The notes under the pieces were generated by a model. That model worked only from the letters and a program-made list of their open reading frames with translations, had not been told where the DNA came from and searched no databases. This document shows positions 29,861 through 60,700 of a stretch of DNA of 64,000 nt, in pieces. The stretch is taken from positions 3,534,001-3,598,000 of the forward strand of contig OZ361256.1 in assembly GCA_977018835.1 (NCBI GenBank). The letters run 5' to 3'. Each line of letters starts with the position of its first letter. Position 1 is the first letter of the stretch. The stretch comes from Minutocellus sp. GHC0000111. Its lineage: Eukaryota. Position numbers and translations under genes: made by a program.

Positions 29861-32265
<2,405 letters not shown>

Positions 32266-32392
32266 CTATGACACTCCTGAACCGAATTTTCCCTCGCATA
32301 TAGACTCAACTCTTAAATTTGAGGAGTAATTATCGATTGTACAGCATTCGAGGCCGACGCGATCGCGACATCAATGGCAAATAGTCTTTGCA

Positions 32393-34207
32393 ATGGTCGC
32401 TCTTGTGCTGCCATTACTGGCCCACATCGCTTGCTCTTCGGTTGGATTTGCGTCAGGGTTTGTTTTGTCACCAGCAGTTCGTGATGATCGCCGGTCTCGT
32501 GGTCCCTTCCTGTCGTCGTCGACAACGACCGATGTACCCGTCAGCTCCTCATTCTGGAACGATGGCGAGAGAGTTGCAAGGTTGCCCGATCCACCGTCAG
32601 CGGAACGTCTGAAGCTGATTCAGGAAAAGCCCTACCGTGGTGGATTTGAGCCCGCCATCGACGTCGAGCAGCCATATGAGCTCAAGATTGTGCAGGGTCG
32701 AATCCCGCCCGACCTCATTGGCACCTTGGCATCCAACGGGGCGGGGAGGATTCGCGTTGGGGATACTCAATATGGGCACTGGTTCGACGGAGACGGATAT
32801 GTTAGCTGTGTGAGTTTCGACGGCAAAGAAAATCGAGCGGTGTTCAATGGCAGATACATTCGAACAAGCCGATTTCTGGCCCAAGAAAAACTAATGGAAG
32901 ACATGAGGAGAAATCATGCTGAGGAAAATGATTTGGCCGCGCCGTCTATCGCCTTTTCAGGTGCATGGACCAAGAAGGGCAGAGGTAGGTGGTACGAAAA
33001 TGTCGGCGTCTTCCCAACTAGCCCGGCAAATACAGCGACCATGTGGCTTGAAGGAGACGAAAGCAAAGGAAGCGAGGCGCCAAGGCTATTCGCGCTCTGT
33101 GAAGGAGGAGATCCTATTCAGCTTGACCCTCAAACGTTGGATGTAGTTCAAGACGAGAGGCCCTTTGCATCTTCTGACGGCTCAACCAAGGTAGACTCAT
33201 TCTTCAGTGCCCATTTCAAACGCTGCCCAATGACCGGTGACATCTATAACCACGGCTTTCTTATTCGGCCTGGACCACTCCAGCCTGAAATGAACGTGAT
33301 GCAATTGTCTGCAGAGGGGAACCTGCTACGTCAGGCAAAGTCCCAGCTACCCTTCGATTGTCTCACTCATGATTCTGCAATGACTAGCAATTTCATGATA
33401 TTTATTCTTCCTCCACTGTACATACCACCGACTAAGGTGTTCTCTTTGATCAGCGGCGCTGCCACCTTGGGCAACATGCTCGAGTGGCACGGGCAGGACG
33501 AGAAAGCTTATGTTCATGTTGTTTCCAAGGATGATCTCAAAATAGAGTTCCGCATCGAACTGCCAGAAATGACTAGCCTTTATCACACCTGCGATGCCTA
33601 CGAGGAAAGGGGTGATGATGGATCTACTCTACTGAGGGTAAGAATAGCTGAACATGATTCGATGGACCGAGAGAAGCTGGAGGAGCAATTCAGCGACCAA
33701 TATCGAGTGAGAGACAAACGAATCAATGCAAACCTCGTGGAGTATTTGTTTAGCTTAGATGAGAATGGAACAGCTGGCAGATTCGTCGATAAACGTCTGG
33801 TGGTAAAGAACGCAGCCTTGTGTGAATTTCCAGTCGTCAATGCGAAATTTGAGCCTGAGGAGAGGCGACGGTACATTTGGACGAATGCGCTCTCAGATCC
33901 ATCGGGCGAGTGGCTCGATGGCATTCAAAAAGTTGATGCGAAACAGGGCACCGTATCTGAGGTCGTTACATTTGGTCGTGGAACCTTTGCGGGGGCCCCA
34001 ACATTCGTACCAAGCAAGCCCATGTCGGCGGAAGATGATGGCTACATACTGGCTACTGTCTATGTGTCGGAGGAGCATCGATCTGATGTTGTCGTTTTGG
34101 ATGCAGCATCCCTCGATATTGTTTGTAGGATGGAACTCCTTCATCATCTTCCTTTTCAGTTCCACAGCGAATACTTGGCAGGCTATGTCAACAGTTCGGC
34201 GGATTGA
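32393..34207 (+). CDS. Carotenoid cleavage dioxygenase (RPE65 family), probably plastid-targeted
   Basis: HWFDGDG and four candidate Fe-binding His (SAHF, THD, LYHT, FHS); EFPVVN; EDDGYILA; signal peptide then ASG-FVL. Confidence 0.9.
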   Translation: MVALVLPLLAHIACSSVGFASGFVLSPAVRDDRRSRGPFLSSSTTTDVPVSSSFWNDGERVARLPDPPSAERLKLIQEKPYRGGFEPAIDVEQPYELKIVQGRIPPDLIGTLASNGAGRIRVGDTQYGHWFDGDGYVSCVSFDGKENRAVFNGRYIRTSRFLAQEKLMEDMRRNHAEENDLAAPSIAFSGAWTKKGRGRWYENVGVFPTSPANTATMWLEGDESKGSEAPRLFALCEGGDPIQLDPQTLDVVQDERPFASSDGSTKVDSFFSAHFKRCPMTGDIYNHGFLIRPGPLQPEMNVMQLSAEGNLLRQAKSQLPFDCLTHDSAMTSNFMIFILPPLYIPPTKVFSLISGAATLGNMLEWHGQDEKAYVHVVSKDDLKIEFRIELPEMTSLYHTCDAYEERGDDGSTLLRVRIAEHDSMDREKLEEQFSDQYRVRDKRINANLVEYLFSLDENGTAGRFVDKRLVVKNAALCEFPVVNAKFEPEERRRYIWTNALSDPSGEWLDGIQKVDAKQGTVSEVVTFGRGTFAGAPTFVPSKPMSAEDDGYILATVYVSEEHRSDVVVLDAASLDIVCRMELLHHLPFQFHSEYLAGYVNSSAD

Positions 34208-34650
34208 AGCAAATCAAATCAATCATGACGAAATTTCAGACTTCGATCTAAAAGTTGGATGAAAATCCTAAGGCACAGAGGGTATACACATACATTTTTG
34301 AATTTCAAGAGTACTTTGGTTGATACGGTTGATTTATCCACTCAGAAAAAAAGTCGTTAGGATTTTCATGTGAAGTACTACTAACTTGATCAGCATATAA
34401 TTCTCAAAAATCACAAATTGCTAGTTTATTTTCACAAGTCACCAGAGAGCTCCACGTGGCAAGAGTTACGTACGAGCTCGTACATGTGCACGTGCCAAGT
34501 GACAGCCGACGGCGCCGAGCAACGAGTGCACTTACTACGTTAGACTAGAGTAGTACTACGTAGCTACAAGCTACGTAGCATGTAATGCTGCTACCGATAC
34601 CGGTGCTGCTCCATTTGAGGATCCGTTTGCTTATCTCATCACGGCAGTCG

Positions 34651-35097
34651 TCAAACGTCGTCTTGTTCGGTCCGTTTCGCGAGGCTGTCGTTGGTGCTGC
34701 CAGCACCGCCATCTGATGTTTCATTCAGAAAAGTCTTCTCTACATCAAGGGGGACAGCCTCATCAGGTACCGCAGCTTTGTCTTCAAAAAGTTCCGTAAG
34801 CACACCCATGCTCTTCTGGAGATTGTCGACTGCAACGTCCAAATCACCGTTGACAGCATGTCCCAGATCACACGTGATGAGCACGTCTCTGAACTTCTCG
34901 AAGGCTCAATTCGAGGACGCGGTTCCAAAACATATGCATCTGTCCTTGTCTTTATGACAGATGGGCAACTCGCCGGCCCTCCCATGAAGAAGAGCAACAC
35001 CAAGCGCTGACTCAACAAGCGCATTTGTCAAACTTACTGCAACCACGAGAAGCATCCTATTTCCATCGGACCTCTCCTTTAAAAGAACTGTGCCGCC
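34651..35097 (-). pseudogene. Degenerate coding exon of unknown family
   Basis: After a ttctctag acceptor reads GGTVLLKERSDGNRMLLVVAV..LPICHKDKDRCICFGTASSN*AFEKFRDVL.. with one in-frame stop. Confidence 0.35.
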
Positions 35098-35673
35098 CTA
35101 GAGAAGAAATCCTGTTCACATCGGACCTCTGCGTGCACCACAAGAACAACAGCATCCTATTTGTGTCGGATGCATGCTGCAAGCCATGAGAGTGTTGTGG
35201 TGTTGGCTCTATTTACCACTATGATTATATTAATAGTATTCGAACCAACCATCACCACAAACCCCACAACAAATTTTGCACGATTCCACAGAGCATAAAA
35301 TGTCATGTGTGTAATATATATTTAATTTAACCTTCCGGTATTCTTACCATTCAACCATTTAATCCCCATAAATGGAATCTACATAATGTTATGCACTGGT
35401 AGCTATCTACTAGGTAGCTGCATTGCACACATGTAGATCTTCACTGGCGTCTACCGGCGCCTGATTGCAATAGCGCCGACTCACACCATCGTACATATCT
35501 GAAAACAGAGGAGGTAAGAAGAAAAATATCGGGGCAAAGATCGCAAAGATCTCTCTTGACACCGAACATCTGGCAACCGGCACCATCGATTCGCATGCGA
35601 TCGACCTTGCCATGAAAAGATATTGCGAAATTAGTGACTACCAAGCGCTCAATACAATGCGAAAACGAAAGAA

Positions 35674-37816
35674 ATGACACATTCGATGAAGATGGAAGTG
35701 CCAATGACGACCGAGGAAGAAGATGCGTTCGCAGAAAAGCAGCTCAAGAAGAAGCAAAACAACAGATCTAATTGGGAAAAGCACGGGTCGCGCTACAATG
35801 CGAAGCGACGTCAGGAACGTCAATCGAAGAAAGCAAAAAAAGAGGAAAGACTTGAGGAGTCGGAGATCATCGCGCAAAGGCAGCGCAAGATGAGACAACG
35901 CAGCAAATCCAATTGGGAAAAGCACGGGCCGAGCTACAATGCGAAGCGACGAAAGGCATATCGAGATAACAAAATGAGAGAAGAAGAGAGGTTGGAGGCT
36001 CTGGAAATCATCCAGAAAAGACATGCTGAGGACACGCGGCTCAAAGAAGAAATGAAATGCAAAGCAGTGGAGGATTCGCGCATGGCATACGAAACGGTGA
36101 TGGCTAAGGAGAGACAGATGATAGATGAGGCCGAGGCAAGAAATACAATGCCGCCATTACCGCCGCCACCAGCATTCGTGATGCAATTGCCCGATTTTCC
36201 CATCGTCCCCGAGCTTTCAGTGCCCACAACAGATGATAAAATGATAATTGGAGTTCGTTGTTTGTATCAGAAGAAGGGAGCCAAAAAGAGGAATAAATTG
36301 ATCAAAGAAGAAGTGATGTATGCTGATCCAAACAGTCATCCAATTTTCATCCGGCCAGTCGGCTGGCACTTGTACAGAAATCCCTCTTGTCTATGGCGGT
36401 GGGGTCGTCAGGTACTATCCGTCGGCAATTCAAGAGGAAGATGCAGAGAGGATATCATCTTATCTCTTGTCATCAGAGTGCGATCATTGGCGATCATACG
36501 TGTCCAATGGAAAGGAGCCTAGGCTGCATTTTTTGGTGGTTCCAAAAGATTGCGAGGGTTGCGGATATGCCTACAACACCGTGAAGATGAAAGGCGTTCC
36601 TCCAGAAAGATGCGGCGCTCTTGGAAATTACTTTAATGAATTCCTTGGCGCGGTTGGAAATAACACAGAGGATGCCCAGTCGATGTGGACTTTGGATGCA
36701 ATTCTGTACAGAAGCAACAAGGATCACATTAACAAACATGCTGATAACAAGCAAGGCGAGCAACGGATATTATGCATTGTAATTCAGTCTAATCCAAGGA
36801 TTGTTGAAATTGAGTCGAATGAGAGCTGTGGTGATATCATTGAGAAAATCACATTGCTCGTCCGGCAAGGCGAGGCCTACGAAATGGACCAGTCAACGCA
36901 AAAGTGCTACCAACACCAAGTACCGAAAATGGATGAGAAAATAAAAAAGAAATACAAACTGTTGTTTCCAACCGCCAGCAATGGAGTATCGTCTCGTGAT
37001 GGCGATACTACAGCCAGCAGGGCAGATATTGCAAAGGAGCAAAGATTAGCTTTGATATTTCGATTGATGCAGCAAAAGGTGGTAGACAGGGACTCCGGCA
37101 TTGTTGTTACAGATACTTGCCCTCCGCCGAAACCTTCGTATGCATTTGGCCATGTTCCGGGGGTCGAAGAAGGAAACGTGTACACCAAGAACGAATTGGA
37201 GGAATTGGGTGCCCACTTGGGCCAAAATAAAGGTGTAAGTGGAAAGAAGGAGGTCGGAACGGACGCAGTATTGATATCTTGCCCCAAAGAGGAACTGAGA
37301 GAGCGCGATCGATTTGTTTCATTACTGTACACTTCAAGTAACAAGCAAGGGGCTCTGGGAACAATGAAGACGATGCAACTTGGCGAGTTTGTCCGCGTAT
37401 TCCGGTCGTCAAAATCAGATGGTAAATGCCCAGGAGTAAAGAAGAATGGGTCTCCTGGCCATCGATATGATGGTTTGTACAAAGTAGCAAATGCTGTTGA
37501 TGAGGCGGGAAATCTTGTCAATGCTAGCGCCCCGCCAGGAAGCAAGGCGCAGTATACTTTTCACCTGGTGAGGGCCAGTAAAGGAACGGGCCCTCGAGAC
37601 AATAAATTGAGTGCCGTAGAGCTGTACAATATCATGCTGGACCAGCGCAGCAGCAACTGCACTACCGTAGACGGCAGTGGCGGCAGCGGCAGCAAGAAGA
37701 TGTCGCCACTACCACCCGAGATGCTCAAATCATTTGAATTAAGCAAAATTGGAAAGATATCTCTTGATGCCAGCGACTGCCGAAGAAGGAAGGTGGCCAA
37801 GGGTAAAAAGATTTGA
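35674..37816 (+). CDS. AlkB-family 2OG-Fe(II) dioxygenase fused to an SRA/YDG domain, with charged repeat N-terminus (frameshift or short intron near 36310-36360)
   Basis: AlkB: EPRL, ILYRSNKDHINKHAD (HxD), QKCYQHQVPK (H), QRLALIFR (RxxxxxR). SRA: FGHVPGVEEG, GAH..GVSG, VRVFRS, HRYDGLYKV, YTFHLVR. Confidence 0.85.
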
Positions 37817-37854
37817 AGAATGATTGTAATTGCTCTCTACAATTTTGGTTACAT

Positions 37855-40800
37855 TTAGTTATCTTCAACAGAAGAATCATCTCGATACTCGTGATCCTCC
37901 ATGTCAAGGGCCGCCGTAATCTTTCTGGAGCGGCCCTTCTTTTTCTTCTTTTCCATGCTGCGGCTGGCCGAGTCGTCTATCATCTTGCAAGCGACGCCCT
38001 CGCAGTATCCGTGCTTGCAGTACGCCTTCTTCTGGTACTGGGGACAAGAGCAAAGGTGGCACATGTCCATCCTCCTTTCGTTCTCGGGAAGAAGAGTGAC
38101 GGCATGGAACGAGTCGAGGCGCTTCTTGAAGGCCTCGAACTTACTGGCCTTGGAACCAAGGGCTTGGAAGCTTGCTGCGGTTCCTACCTTCATAGCCTTC
38201 TCAAATAGAATGTAGTCCTTGAGGGCGGCGTCACGGTACACTGTCATCTTGCCTTTGACACGTTGCACGTCGGTGCCGGTGCCGGTGCCCGTCTCTTCTT
38301 TTTCTAGTTCCTCTATTGCCTTTTTTTCCATCTTGTCATGGATATTGTTGATGGATAGTACGCTGTAATGTAAAAATAAATAAGAGAAGAAAACAACAGT
38401 GCGGGCTTTGATGAGAGATTTGATTTGCCATGATGCAGAAAGCAACAGAACAATCACACATGTACCGACCAGAACTTACTGGTGCCTCCTATCGTCAAGT
38501 GCATTATTCCATATTTCCTTCTGTCCTTATCGCGGTAATCAAGGCAAGCCTTGACTACTTTGGATGGTAGGGGCTTGCGTGTGCTTGGGGTCGCCACGCC
38601 ACCATTTGTGTGCGCGTTCGAGGCTCTCTTCGAGTAATGACGGAGCTGCTCCTTCATAAATTTAATGAAGTTGCGGACGTCCTTTCGCTGATAGTCTGCT
38701 GCTTGTTTGAGCCAACGATTCCGACTTCCAAGGCCATTGTTGGCGGCAGCATATCCAGGAGGATGATGGGCACGAGACCAGCGGCGGGTAGATCCCCCCC
38801 CAGTACTTCTTGACGTACTCGACAAACTCCGATTCGCCCCTCTCGGTCCATTTCTCGTAGAACAAACTCAGGAAGTACTCGAATGCATCTTCACACGGAT
38901 GGGGGACGCAGTGAAGGGCCCGGAGATCCCGCAGAATCTCTCCATAGTTGTCCTTGGTTTTCAGTTTGCTTCTGTTCTCGCGAGCACCCTTCATCATGTG
39001 AAAGAAGCACATGAGAAACCGCACCGTTCGGCGAGTGGGAGCATCTTCGTCTCCATCTCCAGCATCATCTCCAGCATCACATGCGTCGGCCGCGGTCATG
39101 TTGGTCATCGAACACACCAAAACATTCTGCAGGACAGCAAGAAGACAGAGCGGCGAGATGAAAGTGAGACATCAGCAATGAGATGGCACAAACGTTCAGT
39201 GGCTTAATCGCCAAGTGCAGCTTACCAGAGCCTCGCCTTCCGTGTCAAGTGATTCGGCCACAATTTCAATGTTTGCAAGGGGATGGTCATTGAGATGAGA
39301 AGCCTTTGTCGCACACTCGTCGTCATAGTCACCAAACACAAATTCAAATTCGACTCCGCCGTCTTCACTGCCATCATCGTCCTGGTCGCCGTCGCCGTCG
39401 TCACTGTCACTGTCCTGGTCGTAATCGCCATGAAGGTAACCACCGGTGCTGCTGGTCTCGGTCAAACCGGCAGAAGTAGCTTCGTCATCATCGCAATTGT
39501 TCTGCAGGCCATCTCCGTGGTGATTCCCAGCCTCGCCACTTTTCCTCCTTGATTTCTTGGAAGCAACGACGCCGCCCGCACGGCGCTTACCAGTAGGAGT
39601 TCGACGCTTACCAGTAGGAGCAGGATTACCAGTACGAGTAGGAGTTCGACGCTTACCAGCAGAATTAGTTCGACGCTTACCAGCAGGATTAGTTCGACGC
39701 TTCACGGCCACATCCATGCCGTTCCGAATTGCGGGGGCGGCATCTGCCATGAGGTGCATCTCCTTGGGCACAGTAGGGGCAGATTTCTCCTGGGCCTCAA
39801 CCACGTACTGAAAATCCTTAGCTAACGGTTATTATTAGAAGCATGTAATAAGTAAAGAAGTGGCATGGTGAGATCTACATGTAGACACACAGATAAAGAA
39901 TAAAGAAGAATCCGCAGTAATAAAGCACCGACCTTGCTCCGTTGCCGTCAGAGACAAGATACTGGGGTGGTAAACCCTGTTGGCATCATCTACTCCCATG
40001 ACGATGACTGGGTGCCCGGATTTCAGGAGCTTGTACGTGCCATCGACGTTTCGGCGGATGGTTACCGAAAAAAACTTGAGCAGCCTTTTGGTTGACATGA
40101 CAATGTTGAAGTCGTCCGGGGAGATGATTTGGTAGGATATCACATGTGGTTCATCCTCATCCTGTGGTACCGAGGACATCTCTTGACAAAGACCCCTGAT
40201 TACGCCCACTGTGTTTCGCTCATATTCGCTTTCTCGGTGATAGTTCTTCTTGTACGTTTGAATCTGCTCAAGGGACGGGAAGCTGCCATCGGAGAAGCAA
40301 AGGTTAAGAGACGGGTCAGACTCATTGACTATGGATCGATGAATATCTTGAGGGCTGGACCCTTTCGCAAATAAATTTTTGCAATAGTCCTTCTGCTGCG
40401 TAGTCAAACCTTCACGCTTGACACTAAAGTCGTGGCCCTGGATGCAGGATTCATGATGGGCATGGCGTATTTTCACTGTAACTTTAGCTATTCAAGAGAA
40501 GAGTAATAATTTGTTCGTTGGAGGTTCAAAAATCACACAACATGAGACTACAGGATCACATCAAAGATCACACCATGTATCAAATTGAAAAATAAATGGA
40601 ATGCACGCAATGAAACATGCAGCTGTACATGTACATGTACTTACGCTCCTCCTCCAGAGTTGCAGACACTTCGACCTGGAGATTGCATTTGTGGTGAGAG
40701 TATCCCTTGCAGCGCAGCAGGAAATATGCCTCCTTCAAGCCACTGGTGTGTCCACCTTTTGATTTCCGGAGGTTTGGAGGTCCATTCTTATTCAGCTGAG

Positions 40801-41553
40801 CACCAAGTTTGAGTTCAAGTATCTTCAAAATCTTTTCTCGCTCGCCGTCCGCAAACGCCATTTCTATTCTATCAACTTGGACTTGATGACCATCCAAACC
40901 TCCTTCTAAAACTTTCCATTGGGTACCACCTTCGATGCGAGGTCCAGGCCGAAACGCCGGTACCGGTAAATCCTGCTTTCGATGATGGGCGATTGCTACG
41001 GGTGCCGGTTCTGACTTGGTGGCCGCCGTAGCCATAGCCGTAGCACTAGGACGAACAAACATGTCGGCCAGAGTTAGTCCATCCTGCCAGGTACCACCAC
41101 GCTCAATGTACCCCAACACTGCAGTGAACCGATTTTTTACATCAAAGGACGGGAGCATGTCCAGGACACCGTGCGGACAGCTTGGTTGACATCCAGGTGA
41201 GCATGGCCGACCAATTCGCCATACGACGGAAACATGACCAACAGTTTATCACGCACTTTATCGTCTGCCACTGCCACTAAAGACAAAAATCCCATAAGAC
41301 GGGGATCGACGGTTGGTCTGGGCGGAACCGATTCCACGGGGATATCTTCCGGTAGCGAAACCGCAATAGCGGCGGCAGTTGCAAGTGGATCGACATTACC
41401 CTCCAGATCCAAAGTGGCACCAACTTTGATCGCCGATACAAGCGCATGAGCAGACGCCACGACCTCATCGGAGCCAGGAATTCCATCGGAGTTGCCGATT
41501 TTGCTTTCCATTGCACGGCGGCGGTATTCGTTTCGAAGGGCGGGCGGAGACAA
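37855..41553 (-). pseudogene. MULE/Mutator DDE transposase with WRKY/FAR1-like and SWIM zinc fingers; multi-exon, disrupted
   Basis: YFLLRCKGYSHHKC..HAH; NVDGTYKL (D1); MADAAPAIRNG (D2); MCFFHM (CxxH); ANNGLGSRN (expected E replaced by G); CSCPQYQKKAYCKH (SWIM); frameshifts near 41150 and at C8 38794-38801. Confidence 0.88.
39581..39702. repeat. 21-24 bp minisatellite in the transposase encoding (P/S)(A/T)GKRR
   Basis: Repeated gttcgacgcttaccag units. Confidence 0.85.
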
Positions 41554-42061
41554 TCAAAGTAACGACCGCAACGAGAGTTGGCTCGGCAGATACGACGTTG
41601 CCAGTATTATGCCGACGCGGTGCCCACCGCTGATTCGATATTGTTGGGTCGGCAACGACCGGCAACGTCAACGGCATACATGTCCCTGACAACATCATCA
41701 CCTTGATCGCGATAAAGAGAGGAAAGCGGCAAGCTTTACTGAAGCCAAAGAGGGACGCATGAATGATGTGCTCTTTTTGGGCCGGTGGGCCGGTGGGCTG
41801 TCTCGCGTCCCAGCAGCACCCTTGGACCCGTTCGACCGTATTGCCCTTCCTTCCACGTGTCGACCATCTGTGGACTCTTGTGATAATTGAGATTTTCTTG
41901 GTGAAAATTGAAGCATATATCCTTGATCAGTGGAGCGAGTTCAGTTGTAGAAATTTCTACATTTTTACAACGAACAAAACTCTTGTACTCTTCGTCAAAG
42001 GTAGGAACCGGCAATCACAGTAAGGTAATATTGTTACATCGTTACTTGGTCAAATACTGAT

Positions 42062-42829
42062 ATGTCTCTCTCCAGTGCATCGTCGGAAATTGCTCGGGCT
42101 GTTTCGTACTCTGACGACGAGGAGACCAACAGTAGCAAAGTAGCCATCGCTGCCAAAAAGCCCTCGTACATCGAACTGGAATGCATGTCGACCTTTTACA
42201 AGGAAAAATACCACGAGGCAAAATCGTTGCTCCATAACATTGCGGTATCGAAGGGTTGTGTTGCATCAGGAAAGCTTGTGGTCGATCCATCAGCTTTGAC
42301 GAGTAGCAATGTTGTTGCCCCCCAGTTAAGGAGTGCCCTCAATAAATGGAAGACCAAAATGGATCTAAAACGTCGGGCCGAAGAGGGCGACACCAAGGCG
42401 ATCATTGCTATAGGTAGATTTTACGAATTCGGGAACAAGTCGTTCGGCTTCCCAATCGATCATGCCCTCGCCTTTGCCAACTACCAGCATGCTGCGGATT
42501 GTGGCGATCCGGAAAGCACCGTTGAGGCTGGAAATTGCCATGTCCTGGGTTTCGGCACACGCCGAGATGTTCCCCGTGGGCTCAGCATGTTGTTTTGGGC
42601 TTCAGGCAGGTGCAATTCTGCAGCTGCTGCTCGTAGTCTTGGTAACTATTACAAATCTGTTCGACATCTTGGTCCTGAGGGGCTCAACACCGAGCGAGCT
42701 ATGGAGTGGTACGAAAAGGCTCTCGATCGGACCTGCACCATGCCACTTCATGAAACTGATCGGTCACATGTCAAGGATGACAAGTTGCGCTTGGAGATCG
42801 AGTTATTCGTTGATATGGAGGACTTGTAA
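42062..42829 (+). CDS. Sel1-like repeat protein
   Basis: AEEGDTKAIIAIGRFYEFG, YQHAADCGD, GFGTRRDVPRG, SLGNYY..RAMEWYEKA. Confidence 0.8.
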   Translation: MSLSSASSEIARAVSYSDDEETNSSKVAIAAKKPSYIELECMSTFYKEKYHEAKSLLHNIAVSKGCVASGKLVVDPSALTSSNVVAPQLRSALNKWKTKMDLKRRAEEGDTKAIIAIGRFYEFGNKSFGFPIDHALAFANYQHAADCGDPESTVEAGNCHVLGFGTRRDVPRGLSMLFWASGRCNSAAAARSLGNYYKSVRHLGPEGLNTERAMEWYEKALDRTCTMPLHETDRSHVKDDKLRLEIELFVDMEDL

Positions 42830-42934
42830 GTTATTCAGCCTAACCTTGAAGCTAGCAAGACTAGCTACGTACGTGTTTCTTTGTGGTACCGGTAATTTGG
42901 AGTGCTATCCAGAGTAGTTCTGTTGGATAAATGA

Positions 42935-45252
42935 GGCACGTGCATGACAATTTTCTACATAGACGTTTGTCAGATCGACATAGGATTCCTAATCAGGCGA
43001 TGAGAAGTGAAGAAAGTAACAAGCAAAGCCAACCTGGTAAATTATGTGATAGCAATATTCCTCTGTTACTTTTCATTCAATTGTATGTAGATGACGGATG
43101 TGCCACACATGAATGTAGCTACGGTGCCTTGTTTCGTGTCATCTGTAGAAGATCTTTGTCTCCGCAATCTGCATCGTCAACGGACGCATCAAAGCAATCT
43201 TGCTACACATCTCCGAAATCCGAAAAAACAAACTGACGTGGCGACGACCATGTCTTTGCAACTTCCCATCAACTCCAATCCGAAACAACACGCGAAGAAT
43301 GAGCATGTGCGACCTGACGTGGCCTAGCTCTAGATGTCTGCCCTTCGACTGACGGGTCATTTTTGCAGACAACGTCACGAGGCAAGGACGTGGCAAAAAA
43401 TCCGACCAAAAAGCGAACTTACTCTTGTCTGACGTGGTGCTGCTTGGGCAATAGCGTCTACGTACCGGTAGTAGCTATTGGGTAGGCTATCAAGGCCTCG
43501 CTAGCTAGCGGCCTCGTTTGTCATTCTGACTTGATACAATGGGGCCGATGCTCAAAAGAATACAACACGTGCCACTTGTTCTGTGTTATGAAGACAACTA
43601 CGTAGCAAGGCCTACATGTGTATGTCACTGACCAGACTTTTGCAGACAACTCGACTGTCTTTTTCCTCACTCAATCCGAGCATGATTTGCGTCGAACACA
43701 GTCTGACGTGGCGATGAATTCCTTCACTGCACTTTTCCATTGCCGTATCGACACGGTTTTGACAAAAACAAGTCGCAGTCGAACCCAAACGAACAACATA
43801 ACACGAGCCATAAATTGACGTCACTGATGCTGCACAGCCGGTGAAGAGCGTGCGTCTTCGCGTTTCTTTTCACCGAAATCCGAGCGAACCACCGTTTGCC
43901 ATCAACGATAACTGACGTGGAGAATCCACGACTATGAATTTGAGTTCAATGCGAGCTTTGAGCCTGGCTGACGTACATAAGAATCTGACACAACTCCCCC
44001 AAACCGAATTCTTTGATTTTAATATGGAAATGATGAATCGAAAATGACCCAGGGCCGATGATTCCTTGTTCTTGACAGAGAAAGCGTTTTTTGTGGACGC
44101 TGAAAAGTCATCAATTGCGGAGAACCAAACCGAACCTTCTCCACTCTTTGACTCAGGCAAAGAATCCAAGGTGGGAGAAGCCAAACAAGGGTGAAAAACA
44201 ACGCACTCACAAAACAAACCACGAAAACAATTCCAATTTCCATCACACCACCATCACACCACCATGATCCACATCGATAACAACCATAGCAGCAGACGGA
44301 CCATCGAGCACCGGCCGTCACTCTCCGCGTCAGCATCGCTCCGCCGGCTATTTGCTCAGCCCCAACCGGCATCATCGCCATACACACCGGGTTCGGTCAT
44401 GGTCCTCACCCAGAATATAGGCCTCAAACTCGATGAACAAGAACAAAACAGTAAGGGAGAAAGAATTTCCATGCACATCCAATCCTTCTTCAAGAACCTC
44501 TCCGACACATCTTCAAGAGGAGATCGACGAACAATCTGACAACTCCGAAACCGATCAGGAGGTAAAAGATCGCAATCCCACATCATCCATCAACAAGCAA
44601 GATCGTCGATCGGAGGAAGAATTTTCCGGCTACCTATACGAAGAGTTCACGGAAGAACTGAAAGACCACTCCACCATGAAGAAAGACAAGGATAGTTTTT
44701 ACGATTCCACTTCCACCAAGGTTCGACGGCCGCTTCGTCGAAGTTGACGGCCTTATCCAGTACGACCCGGAATGGGAAGAGAGACAACTGGCCAAACAAA
44801 AGAGGAGGCGACGACGACGCGCCAGCGCATGGGGCCAGAACATGGTTGTGAACAAGGCAGCATAGCAGGGACAGGTGTACATTACAAAAATACTGTAAAT
44901 ATACATATCATACTAGTACGTGTTCTCGCTCAAAGAGCTTGCAGTTACTACATGTACTACAAATATACTACTAGAGCTAGCCATAGCCAATTGTATGGCA
45001 AATATGTTGGCATATGGGCCTAGCTATCCTAGCTGCGATACAATGGGTTTCGGTATATGGCCCAATTTGGTGGTGGTATGTGCATGCATGTAATGGCATT
45101 CTTTGATGATTTGTAATATGTAGAATGTCACTAGCTAGTAGGCGAGTTAGGTATTTGTATGACAATTTTCTACATAGACGTTTATCAGATCGACATAATC
45201 AGGCGATGGCACGTGAAGACAGTAGAACAAGCAAAGACAGCCCGCAAATAAT
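42935..45252. repeat. ~100-bp imperfect direct repeats (~42935-43040 and ~45150-45252) flanking a 2.1-kb segment
   Basis: tgacaattttctacatagacgttt(g/a)tcagatcgacata..atcaggcgatg..gtgaaga..aagcaaag present in both copies. Confidence 0.85.
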
Positions 45253-57793: not shown

Positions 57794-60700
57794 ATGGAAT
57801 CGAATCCCTACCTAGTCGGCGACGAGCCTACGCAAGAGGTGGAAGATGAGGTAAGCCCATATTTGTGTCATTTTTCGTATCGTAGGGATCCTATCTTGGC
57901 ACGTTGAATTTATGGATTGCCATGCGGGTCTGTGGCCGAGTGTTCCGAATGATTTTTTTATTGCTCAACCGATATTGCGTCTATTGCTTCGTTACCACTG
58001 ATAGGCCGAGGCAGCCCTTCTATCGGTGCTGGAAGAGCGACGAGATGTCGCTCGCTTCGGTATGCTGGCTCGTGCCGAATCGCAACGCGACGTCCTCCCA
58101 GCGGTAGACCCTCAAGCGGCCGACGTTATTCTTGCTGCCGCTGGCGATAGTGAAACGGCCAAGGGAACTACGCCCCGAACCAGGTTGCCGTCGTTGGGCC
58201 TGTCGTCTGCGTCGAGGGCTCAGTCTGCTTCTGGTGCTCCTGCGTCTCACCACCGTCGTGCCGGCAGCTTCGCGGCAGATACGGTAACCACTGCCACGAG
58301 CGCCGAATCCCGCATGAATCTCTTGTTGGCCGCCAGAGAGAATATGTCGCAAAAGAATCTGGGCATCGACGTTGCCCCGACGACTGGTGGCGGGGGCAGT
58401 GCTGGCGACATTCTCTTTCATTACTGTGGCAATCCCAGTCTCCCCTTCCTCCCCGGCGATTCAGCGCTGTCGTGGTGGCTCATATTCATCACTCGTCAGC
58501 TGCTGACTCTGCAACTCGCTTTTGCTCCGGAATATATCCTCGTAGAGGCCATTGCATGCAGAAGTCCGGTAGCGATCAAGTTGTTCGGTCCGCTAATGAC
58601 CCTGTTTGCCATGCAAGCCAAAGGCTGGCCGTTTCTCATGGCTAGTTGGGCAACATGGGACTTGCTACTGCTTCATGGAGGGCATGTATTTGCCAAGAAC
58701 TGGCTATTTTATTTGGACATTCCCATGCTGTCGGAAGCCAATGGAGACGATGGATTTTTGGAAAGTGAGATTTACCTTCGATCTCTCTTGGCGGCCATCT
58801 TTGCTGCTGGAATCATGACAGCCATAAAGCGCACGTATCTTGCGCTCTACATGGGCAGGCGAACATTCGACCATTACAAGCCCCAGCTGGAGCAGCTCAT
58901 GATCAACATCGTCCTCATTGCGCACATCGCAGATCTTGCCTCGGAGACGGAAACTCCTGAATTCGCTGAAGCCTTGGCGCTCTGCGAGGAATCAACCGTG
59001 CCCTTGTCGCAGAGAGGTAGGGGAAGGGAGAGCATGCGAAAAAGTGATAAGAAGTGGAGTGACATCAAATTCGAGCAGAAAGATAAGAAGAAGGCTCCGG
59101 TTGATGATTCCAGCGAGGAGGGGTCGGTCCGCGAGGAAAGCGAAGACGAAGGCGATGGCCAAAACAAGAAGATGAAGTGGAACAAAATGCTAGATGGCCA
59201 AAGTGTTACCTCTGATGATGCCCCTCGGAGGGAGCCTCTCACTCGCGGGGATATGTCTCCAGGCAGGGGCGTTGTGGGCTCGAATGGAGACATTATTGAT
59301 GCTGAAAATGGATCACCTCCTATGCGAACAATCAGCGCAAAGCACATGGGCGACGGGCCACCTTTTCCACAGCCTGGATATCAGCGTCAAACTAGCTCCA
59401 ACATCAAGATGAAGAATCTGTTGGACAGGTGGGACGAGCCCGTGAACAAAATGGACAAAGCTGTTCCGCCCTCCATTCATGACATCTTACAGTTCAGAAA
59501 AGCGCTCTCTTATCTCGATGATTCCCATCCCTTTTCTGAGTCCTTCGGCCCCTCGGAGACTAGAGACCAATGCATCAAATCGAGCCAGAAGGTCTTCAAA
59601 CGCCTCCTCAATTTCGTGCCGGGCGAAACTGTGCTACCATTCGACGTTATTGGCTCGATTGCCATGGACGAAGATGGTGTCTACGACCGTGACGTCTCTT
59701 TGGCACTCGTCAGATTATTTCGCCCAAACCGAGATGATTGCCTTACAATGCTCAACTTTGTCCAGTCATGCGATTGGATGTACAAAAAAGTGCGCTACCT
59801 TCGAGCGAGTGTCGCCAATAGCACCCTCATTGACCGGGTGCTTGAGCACGATTTTAATGTCCTCTTTTATTTTTTTTCTCGTCTTGATTGTCATTTCCAT
59901 CCTCAACTTTGATCCCTGGAGCCTCCTCTTCTCAATGAGCACCATTCTCGTTTCCTTTGCCTTTGCGTTAGGACCTTCGGCAGCGAAAGCTATTGAAGGC
60001 GTTTTCCTCATTGCTATGCAACACCCATTTGACCTCGGCGACAGGATCTGCATAACATCGGCTACAGGCCCTGAACCGGACCTGTCTCAGAATTGGTTCG
60101 TCGAAGACGTCTCGCTCTGGAAAACAACTTTACGCTTTGCAGCAACAAACGAAGTATCCACGGTAAACAATGGCAGTATCGCAGGCAGTCGAATCATCAA
60201 CTTCGCCCGCTCTCAGAAGGCGCTTGTTACTCTCAATCTCATGTTTCGATCCGAAGCGACCAGCCAGCAAATATCACTCTTCCGGGCAGCTGTTGAGAAG
60301 TATGTCGAAGATAATCCAAGAGTTTGGTCATCCATGGTAGCATTTTTCATTGTGAAGATCGACCCTGACGCGGAGTCTACCGAATATTTGCTGCGGTTTC
60401 AGCACCCGCTCTCAGAAGGCGCTTGTTACTCTCAATCTCATGTTTCGATCCGAAGCGACCAGCCAGCAAATATCACTCTTCCGGGCAGCTGTTGAGAAGT
60501 ATGTCGAAGATAATCCAAGAGTTTGGTCATCCATGGTAGCATTTTTCATTGTGAAGATCGACCCTGACGCGGAGTCTACCGAATATTTGCTGCGGTTTCA
60601 GCATCAAAAGAGTTGGCAGGAAATCGCAACAATACTATTGAATCGTGGCGAGCTACTTCAGTTCTGCCTCACTCTCATGGTGAAACTTGACATAGCCTAC

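Follow-up and report, generated by a model that had tools for sequence, protein, structure and literature searches.

An AlkB-SRA fusion gene carried by a Mutator-like transposon of Minutocellus: a candidate anti-silencing module

We analyzed a 64,000-nucleotide (nt) stretch of DNA from Minutocellus sp. GHC0000111 (GCA_977018835.1, contig OZ361256.1, positions 3,534,001 to 3,598,000 of the forward strand), referred to here as the window; all coordinates are positions within these 64 kb. The window contains a Mutator-like element (MULE), bounded by a target-site duplication (TSD) and by degenerate terminal inverted repeats (TIRs), in which two genes converge. One is a MULE transposase gene, and the other encodes a fusion of an AlkB-type 2-oxoglutarate (2OG)- and Fe(II)-dependent dioxygenase domain with an SAD/SRA (YDG) domain, here called AlkB-SRA (Table 1). 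Copies of the element and other loci were read from the public contigs of five of the 20 listed runs, where X1 and X2 are two DNA samples of one organism, X5 is another strain, and X6 and X8 are RNA from two studies. The last two libraries can be recognized as RNA because they hold spliced contigs of the transposase gene.

Table 1. Features of the element and of its two genes, as positions in the window
Feature	Position	Strand	Description
Whole element	34394-41921		7,528 bp; from empty-site contigs that skip the element, flank breakpoints, and X1 depth
Left TSD copy	34385-34393		9 bp, CTTGATCAG, identical to 41922-41930
Right TSD copy	41922-41930		9 bp, CTTGATCAG
Left degenerate TIR	34394-34465	+	In-register match to right end
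Right degenerate TIR	41850-41921	-	In-register match to left end
Left-arm mosaic	34552-35200		Short segments common to other loci and transcripts; stop-broken minus-strand open reading frame (ORF) fragments
AlkB-SRA gene, intronless	35674-37816	+	713 codons after removal of the extra T at 36346
Tandem repeats	35729-36010	+	2 x 141 nt, 72% identity; basic N-terminal motif SNWEKHG..YNAKRR
Extra T, frameshift	36346	+	T4 instead of T3; private to window copy and X5 strain
AlkB-type 2OG-Fe(II) dioxygenase domain	36407-37063	+	PF13532; HxD, H, RxxxxxR
SAD/SRA (YDG) domain	37145-37510	+	PF02182
Spacer between convergent stop codons	37817-37854		38 bp
MULE transposase gene	41511-37855	-	Exons 41511-40645, 40487-39933, 39821-38480, 38362-37855
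RNA-confirmed introns	40488-40644, 39822-39932, 38363-38479	-	GT..AG; contigs of X6 and X8
Missing G, exon 1 frameshift	41163	-	Private to window copy and X5 strain
First catalytic Asp region	40027-40047	-	VDGTYKL, aligned to vDaTYkl of local profile
Second catalytic Asp region	39718-39750	-	MADAAPAIRNG, aligned to liaDgaeaIrng of local profile
Insertion inside DDE domain	39016-39700 (approximate)	-	~0.66 kb; KRRT-type basic repeats, long acidic tract
Candidate fourth intron	39225-39127	-	99 nt; G|GTAAG donor, ..CTGCAG acceptor, two in-frame stops
G8 run (C8 on + strand)	38794-38801	-	Frame leaves MULE profile (profile alignment)
Third catalytic residue codon	38727-38729	-	GGA (Gly) here, GAA (Glu) in other copies
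Second frameshift site, ahead of SWIM frame	38319-38330	-	TGG-A7-GG; window reads MTRWKKRQ*
Candidate SWIM zinc-finger core	38011-38052	-	CSCPQYQKKAYCKH; CxC..CxH present

Ends and mobility of the transposon

The ends of the element are given by contigs of an empty allele, in which 34384 is joined to 41922. This joint skips 7,537 bp, nine letters fit on either side of it, and one copy of CTTGATCAG is kept. It is present in X1 (depth of 50), X2 (170), and X5 (12), with a short side of 21 + 9 = 30 letters, which we read as the expected remnant of a junction contig built from 31-letter words, a word size that is itself deduced. Since the 9-bp duplication and the empty-site contigs fix both ends, the element can be assigned to 34394 to 41921. 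An initial annotation, made from the letters alone, had set the ends at 34290 and 42005; the true ones lie ~100 and 84 bp further inside. The TSD found at both of them agrees with the 8 to 11 bp that define MULEs and with the 9 to 11 bp that had been anticipated for this element.

The depth of the X1 contigs is 176 to 209 inside the element, about twice the 100 to 117 of its flanks, compared with 50 for the empty-site contig. These values fit a heterozygous insertion together with further copies elsewhere. Contigs from other copies depart from the window exactly at the two ends, at 34393/4 with one flank (X1 and X2) and at 41921/2 with two to three different flanks (X1, X2, and X5). Furthermore, X1 but not X2 has a junction 34438|38973 (29 + 1 letters), apparently from an internal-deletion derivative that is confined to one sample. 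Mobility, in the sense of several loci and insertion polymorphism, is therefore seen in the empty allele, the unlike flanks, the depth, and the deletion junction. Another joint, 34575->37673, was considered as a deletion derivative and rejected, as it has 21 letters on its short side and the same contig diverges at 37693.

The degenerate TIRs postulated in the initial annotation turned out to be significant at the true ends, although not in a search blind to them. With the true ends as starting points, an in-register comparison of the termini gives identity at 26 of 45 positions, whereas random pairs give 11.2 ± 2.9 and none of 20,000 reaches 26. A gapped comparison of the terminal 75 nt scores 14 against −12.2 ± 5.2 (0 of 3,000 random pairs), five standard deviations above random. 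The blind inverted-repeat search missed these repeats: its best local alignment of 23 is not significant against shuffles (19.4 ± 1.9; maximum, 26), and there are no inverted pairs of at least 40 nt in the whole window. Both arms of that best alignment are 34 nt away from the true ends, and the TIRs became visible only once the empty site had set the ends.

As a result, positions 34394 to 41921 are one mobile, well-delimited Mutator-like DNA transposon that holds both genes. The earlier placement of the two genes inside one transposon is confirmed by the 9-bp TSD, the degenerate TIRs, the empty allele, and the copies at other loci. The element does not correspond to the definition of a Pack-MULE, since it has a transposase gene and its cargo gene is complete and expressed.

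The left arm is the sole part of the element that resembles captured material, and it possibly reflects fragments of other transcribed genes. DNA and RNA contigs diverge within it at 34552, 34606, 34722/3, and 34802, and the minus-strand ORFs 34651-34905 and 34906-35097 are one frame interrupted by a stop; no Pfam family was found in these fragments. The copies also differ by a 133-nt indel in this arm (joint 34977->35111), with 34978-35110 missing from the RNA contigs. We rejected an intron as the cause of this skip, given that no shift of the cut yields GT..AG on either strand. In terms of base composition, the CpG observed/expected ratio is 0.95 in the element and 0.94 in the rest of the window, with no sign of depletion.

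The AlkB-SRA gene and the transposase gene

The AlkB-SRA gene ends at 37816, 38 bp from a convergent stop codon at 37855-37857, exactly as first described. Its identity as an AlkB-SRA fusion, also proposed at the outset, is confirmed by Pfam models and by intact HxD..H..RxxxxxR and YDG motifs. The window ORF 36320-37816 (+) matches SAD_SRA with an E value of 6.6e-11 (42.6 bits; cutoff, 30.7), and the SRA part scanned alone matches PF02182 with an E value of 1e-11 (45.3 bits, same cutoff). The AlkB part (36380-37099), when scanned alone, reaches 31.4 bits with PF13532 (2OG-FeII_Oxy_2; E value of 2.7e-7; cutoff, 31.2) over profile positions 2 to 194 of 194. HAD lies at 36737-36745, the second His, within YQHQVPK, at 36908-36928, and RLALIFR at 37043-37063, and all three are kept in every aligned copy; RYDGLY of the SRA domain lies at 37463-37480. 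PF02182 was also matched by three of four relatives, the fourth (P0003) being cut by a frameshift inside the domain. An NCBIfam scan of the protein gave no family, and for the N-terminal 215 residues we found neither a family nor a usable match in an Atlas search.

Among solved structures in the PDB, human ALKBH3 was the only AlkB protein that the AlkB part retrieved. This match is weak (E values of 0.11 to 0.24), with the HxD motif and the His aligned. The nearest solved SRA chain is the SRA module of the restriction endonuclease TagI (6ghs; E value of 3.9e-4). A relative with a model in the ESM Atlas can be superposed on a bacterial AlkB cluster (template-modeling score of 0.75 by row) and, only poorly, on bacterial SRA-HNH proteins.

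We searched for relatives of AlkB-SRA in a collection of 5.8 billion proteins, with a search limited by words and by length, and retrieved three: P0001 (702 amino acids [aa], 86% identity), P0002 (95%), and P0003 (79%). Two scans of JGI metagenome contigs, one with the AlkB-SRA protein and one with the alignment, yielded no relative. The relatives begin ~215 residues further upstream than the window ORF, in a basic helical region that lies on the two 141-nt repeats. P0001 and P0159 read straight through the frameshift site at 36346, and the N-terminal part of the window copy (from 35674) is in the other frame because its T run has four Ts rather than three. The extra T is absent from X1 (175.9 of 175.9), X2, X6, and X8 and kept in X5 (0 of 14.4). 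The version with three Ts has no internal stop over its whole length, and this intact ORF is the majority form in X1 and X2. Within the gene, the window copy differs from the majority at eight positions, of which six are nonsynonymous and two are synonymous.

The gene is transcribed. RNA contigs cover 35687-37637 in X6 and 35807-37801 in X8, and the X6 depth is 11.6 to 12 across the gene against 0.87 just upstream of it, a pattern that is alike in X8. The RNA contigs of the two convergent genes end at 37801 (X8) and 37832 (X6) and do not overlap. One X8 contig lacks 37614-37664, 51 nt in frame with 7 letters of microhomology, within the low-complexity C-terminal tail; this loss reflects a difference in length between copies or strains.

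The convergent gene was less easily recognized. None of the seven minus-strand ORF pieces gave a MULE domain when scanned directly with Pfam, and SWIM appeared only below its cutoff (E value of 0.0063, 16.5 bits; cutoff, 19.6). Of the families expected from the initial annotation, SAD_SRA and, for the domain alone, 2OG-FeII_Oxy_2 were therefore obtained directly, while MULE gave no row and SWIM was subthreshold. Intron 2 and the 0.66-kb insertion both interrupt the DDE domain. We thus turned to relatives of the exon 2 piece, of which 361 were found at an E value of ≤1e-3 among 1.84 billion representative proteins; a search of "longer" proteins with exon 2 found nothing. From the 150 relatives listed, we scanned 25, namely, the five best and 20 longer ones. 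PF10551 is present in 17 of these 25 (16 above the cutoff) and begins where the match to the query ends, and SWIM has a row in eight (six above the cutoff). The eight relatives with neither domain include the five best matches, which are short ORF fragments.

A profile built from 13 full-length relatives with both MULE and SWIM domains is collinear with the gene over profile positions 109 to 599. Along it, the first Asp lies in exon 2 (E value of 3e-36) and the second at the start of exon 3, followed by CxxH, NNxxES, and the SWIM region (E value of 1e-10). By this homology to PF10551 through its relatives, the convergent gene is a MULE transposase gene, probably of the MULE+SWIM type, so that the assignment made initially stands on the relatives and the collinear profile, with the direct MULE scan blank. 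The insertion in the DDE domain, ~200 codons long, is missing from all 13 profile relatives (in P0132, for example, residues 390->393 span 39676->39015) and is kept as an ORF in P0006, a relative with 90% identity. Removal of the candidate fourth intron within it would take out both in-frame stops. The RNA contigs of X6 and X8 retain this intron, whereas the other three are spliced, and its retention could limit the production of transposase.

The window copy of the transposase gene is not intact, as Gly replaces its third catalytic residue and its frame is shifted at 41163, 38794-38801, and 38319-38330. NNGLGS in the window aligns to NNalEs of the profile, and a plus-strand T for C at 38728 in X1, X2, X5, and X6 turns the codon into GAA. 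The G missing at 41163 is restored in X1, X2, X6, and X8 and not in X5, and the same four runs supply 9 nt that are missing behind 41018, a loss private to the window copy and the X5 strain. The G8 run at 38794-38801, in contrast, is common to the window, X1, X2, and the RNA contig of X6, and only X5 has one base fewer. We did not trust this in-frame G7 of X5, which resembles a read error, given that X5 drops single bases in other homopolymers as well (35835 and 37940). Either all near-identical copies have inherited a frameshift at the G8 run, or slippage or frameshifting takes place there. At 38319-38330, three relatives (P0155, P0156, and P0161, the last from RNA) stay in the SWIM frame with the reading ..RWE.K.I.., and X1 has no gap here. 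The majority copies accordingly have Glu and the restored 41163 and keep the frameshifts at 38794-38801 and 38319-38330. The window copy is a decayed member of its family, with a frameshift in each gene. As the near-identical copies share two transposase frameshifts, their movement would need a transposase from outside or a recovery of the frame.

Pairing of the two genes and possible functions of AlkB-SRA

To gain an idea of how tightly the two genes are linked, we compared the contigs on which their relatives are encoded. All three AlkB-SRA relatives (79 to 95% identity) are on contigs equal in size to those of a transposase relative. P0001 (86%) goes with P0155 (exon 4, 85%) on contigs of 4,976 nt, and P0003 (79%) goes with P0006 (exons 2 and 3, 90%) on contigs of 7,375 nt. 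The copies of ~95%, P0002 and P0159, go with the exon 4 fragments P0157, P0160, P0166, and P0167 at 338,571 nt, a contig on which two further copies are deduced. The window's own ORFs appear as P0158 and P0165 at 1,206,057 nt. The co-occurrence with MULEs predicted for other AlkB-SRA copies is thus found in three of three relatives, and none of these three, from a search limited by words and by length, is free of a transposase. Because all three can be matched to a transposase relative, the pairing is probably a family trait. Both findings that would have spoken against a transposon carrying AlkB-SRA, an AlkB-SRA relative without transposase (n = 3) and an insignificant TIR match once the ends were corrected, failed to appear.

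The element resembles MuDR and other MULEs in its MULE-type DDE transposase, 9-bp TSD, inverted ends, internal-deletion derivatives, and possession of a second gene. Its transposase probably also has the C-terminal SWIM finger, which many but not all MULEs possess. The layout of mudrA and mudrB is convergent, like that of the two genes here. The element is unlike these MULEs in the 0.66-kb insertion within its DDE domain and in its ends, which span ~70 nt with ~58% matched, versus TIRs of ~200 bp. The second ORFs known from MULEs are mudrB, mutB, and vanB/C, and the survey table of Dupeyron et al. gives diatom MULEs with one ORF (PMC6446971). A MULE of Phaeodactylum tricornutum that was seen to jump (Abbriano et al.; bioRxiv 10.1101/2023.01.02.522487) likewise has 9-bp TSDs and a companion ORF. 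It measures 3.7 kb, compared with 7.5 kb here, and its companion is a gene for a UBR-type E3 ligase; the companion here is neither this ligase nor mudrB but AlkB-SRA.

The known transposons that counter their own silencing offer further parallels. The VANDAL/Hiun MULEs of Arabidopsis, with VANC, are alike in being MULEs that carry their own anti-silencing factor, a function that is proposed for the element here. VANC does not belong to the AlkB or SRA families, and no homology to AlkB-SRA is seen or expected. Transposon-borne TET/JBP genes have been described along with VANC (PMC12730594), and the fungal KDZ and other TET/JBP transposons, which have a 2OG-Fe(II) dioxygenase for methylated bases beside a transposase, would be the closest functional parallel. 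The dioxygenase here is of the AlkB family instead, is fused to a domain that reads 5-methylcytosine (5mC), and is carried by a MULE; the words AlkB, SRA, and Mutator do not occur in the text of that article. Pfam found only PF13532 and PF02182 in the cargo protein, with no homology to TET/JBP or VANC, and AlkB-SRA is at most a functional analogue of these proteins, not a member of their families.

The domain pair itself has precedents. Iyer, Zhang, and Aravind (2016; PMC4738411) described SAD/SRA fusions in the AlkBH3 clade and predicted them to be DNA demethylases; they have the same two domains as the protein here, whose AlkB part is likewise nearest to ALKBH3. In the relevant passages of that work, fungi are named for a divergent SRA version and N6-methylated adenine (m6A) is the proposed substrate, and a transposon location is not stated. 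AlkB domains also occur in other selfish elements, namely, plant RNA viruses and orchid Ty3/Gypsy retrotransposons (PMC9289625). These carriers are RNA-based replicators, with RNA as the proposed substrate and no SRA domain, whereas the element here is a cut-and-paste DNA transposon whose dioxygenase has a DNA-reading partner. Literature searches over titles and the beginnings of abstracts, which did not cover most subscription journals and Repbase reports, returned no report of AlkB-SRA on a MULE. The AlkB-SRA architecture is already in print, and a MULE carrying it is apparently new, even though an earlier description may exist.

Given these parallels, we propose that expressed AlkB-SRA would oxidize methyl groups on 5mC-marked DNA and thereby counter the silencing of the element, an explanation to which we assign slightly less than an even chance. 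The SRA domain would dock on DNA marked with 5mC or 5-hydroxymethylcytosine, and the ALKBH3-like domain would then act on the DNA near the bound mark, either oxidizing 5mC or removing N-methyl groups; the resulting demethylation would benefit the element family in trans. We favor anti-silencing because the pairing with the transposase is strict, because TET/JBP and VANC offer parallels, because 5mC is oxidized in vitro by ALKBH2, ALKBH3, and AlkB (PMC6582317), and because AlkBH3-SAD/SRA demethylases had been predicted. More tentatively, a MULE family of marine microbial eukaryotes may carry an SRA-AlkB reader-eraser that stays intact where the transposase has decayed and that keeps the family transcribed and mobile. 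It would correspond, with an AlkB enzyme, to the TET/JBP genes that fungal transposons carry. The cargo gene exists, is transcribed, and is probably linked to the family; that its function lies in anti-silencing is what we infer.

Several points weigh against anti-silencing. AlkB enzymes chiefly act on N-methyl lesions. The flipped 5mC sits in the SRA pocket itself and is thus out of reach for the fused enzyme, and the protein would act in trans, so that a benefit specific to the element itself is only conjectural. The lack of CpG depletion is compatible with protection but equally with a young or an unmethylated element. Regarding the copies, the one in the window is frameshifted in both genes and has Gly for the catalytic Glu, and autonomy is doubtful because the majority copies keep two transposase frameshifts and the RNA retains the candidate intron with its stops. 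The pairing in other copies, moreover, is deduced from the equal sizes of contigs and not from their DNA. On the protein side, 2OG-FeII_Oxy_2 stays below its cutoff of 31.2 in the 498-aa ORF 36320-37816 (E value of 1.9e-6, 28.6 bits), and P0001, P0159, P0002, and P0003 show no PF13532 row when scanned whole, which makes the pass of the isolated domain a narrow one. An AlphaFold2 model from a four-sequence alignment is too poor to judge the folds (mean predicted local distance difference test score [pLDDT] of 38.4; predicted template-modeling score of 0.24), and its only confident part is a long helix at residues 3 to 146 (pLDDT of 60 to 83 in 10-residue blocks). Finally, oxidation of 5mC by the AlkB family is known as an in-vitro finding only, and a weak one (PMC6582317).

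A close rival keeps the same element and cargo and assigns them to repair. An SRA-guided ALKBH3-like enzyme would remove 3-methylcytosine (3mC), an off-target product of DNA methyltransferases (DNMTs), and also 1-methyladenine (1mA) from methylated DNA, sparing the most methylated DNA, that of transposons, from replication blocks and mutation. N-demethylation is the robust activity of the AlkB family. The nearest solved AlkB structure, with the catalytic motifs aligned, is that of ALKBH3, a repair enzyme for 3mC and 1mA, and an SRA domain that marks methylated CpG would bring the enzyme to the sites of DNMT action; the element is also not depleted in CpG. DNMTs are known to introduce 3mC, and ALKB2 coevolves with DNMT1/3 (PMC9246332). 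However, a trans-acting repair enzyme would serve host and element alike, so that strict pairing with the transposase in three of three relatives is less expected than for a selfish factor. Repair of 3mC hence suits AlkB chemistry better than anti-silencing does and the transposon linkage worse, and we consider it somewhat unlikely.

Less probable still is that AlkB-SRA is a captured host gene, a passenger useless to the element and kept up by chance or by a benefit to the host. MULEs acquire extra ORFs and fragments of host genes (PMC6446971), and the left arm is a mosaic of segments common to other transcribed loci. The window copy of AlkB-SRA is already frameshifted, and its differences from the majority are mostly nonsynonymous (six against two). 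Nevertheless, copies with as little as 79% protein identity still show the pairing and still have the catalytic and YDG motifs, P0001 has a full ORF of 702 aa, and in X1 and X2 the majority form combines an intact AlkB-SRA ORF with a broken transposase gene. The gene is also transcribed in two studies, and the word-limited search returned no relative free of the transposase.

The AlkB domain could alternatively strip m6A or N1-methyladenosine from the element's own transcripts. ALKBH3-type enzymes accept RNA, and the AlkB domain of the orchid retrotransposon has been reported as an m6A RNA demethylase (PMC9289625). We nonetheless regard an RNA substrate as very improbable, since the fused SRA is a DNA base-flipping module, with a modification-dependent DNA endonuclease as its nearest solved relative, and since DNA transposons lack an RNA genome in need of protection. 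Chance adjacency or segmental duplication, with no transposon carrying AlkB-SRA at all, would agree with the insignificant blind search for inverted repeats, the lack of a Pfam MULE domain in the window ORF pieces, and the broken transposase, but it is already contradicted by an empty allele that removes both genes together and leaves one copy of the 9-bp duplication, by copies that share exact ends with different flanks, by in-register inverted repeats at these ends, and by the pairing in all three relatives, and we hold it to be extremely unlikely.

If anti-silencing is the function of AlkB-SRA, its presence on a mobile MULE would bring a new enzyme family into this role, with a built-in reader and in a lineage that is neither plant nor fungal. 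Few transposons encode epigenetic countermeasures of their own; examples are the VANC genes of Arabidopsis MULEs, the TET/JBP genes of fungal elements, and the SET genes of oomycete elements. The gene also provides a concrete expressed protein for the old prediction of SRA-tethered AlkBH3-type enzymes acting on methylated DNA, with 5mC, N6-methyladenine in DNA, and methyltransferase-made 3mC as candidate substrates. The filled and empty alleles, the near-identical copies, and the sample-specific deletion derivative amount to a natural experiment in which activity and methylation are directly comparable.

Flanking genes and other repeats in the window

The element lies between two genes, a carotenoid-oxygenase gene of the RPE65 family on the left (32393-34207; Pfam E value of 3.9e-87) and a Sel1-repeat gene on the right (42062-42829). 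The insertion is 177 bp past the stop codon of the former and 131 bp ahead of the ATG of the latter. In the empty allele the two genes would lie only ~318 bp apart, so that the insertion site was a short spacer on the promoter side.

Just upstream of the RPE65-family gene, the stretch 31934-32400 has a depth of 618 in X1, versus ~105 around it. In some contigs, 109 bp of it (32283-32391) are swapped for 139 other letters, and many contigs have loose ends between 32270 and 32334. This stretch is either a further repeat or a promoter-region indel polymorphism. On the other side of the element, a 49-nt direct repeat with 90% identity occurs at 42934-42982 and, 2.2 kb away, at 45149-45197. The bin with the first copy has an X1 depth of 553, compared with ~117 around it, and many contigs diverge at 42944 and 42982, which suggests a short dispersed repeat; the two copies may be the ends of another element. 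Further to the right, a 199-nt sequence stands twice in tandem at 60206-60603, with 100% identity between the copies.

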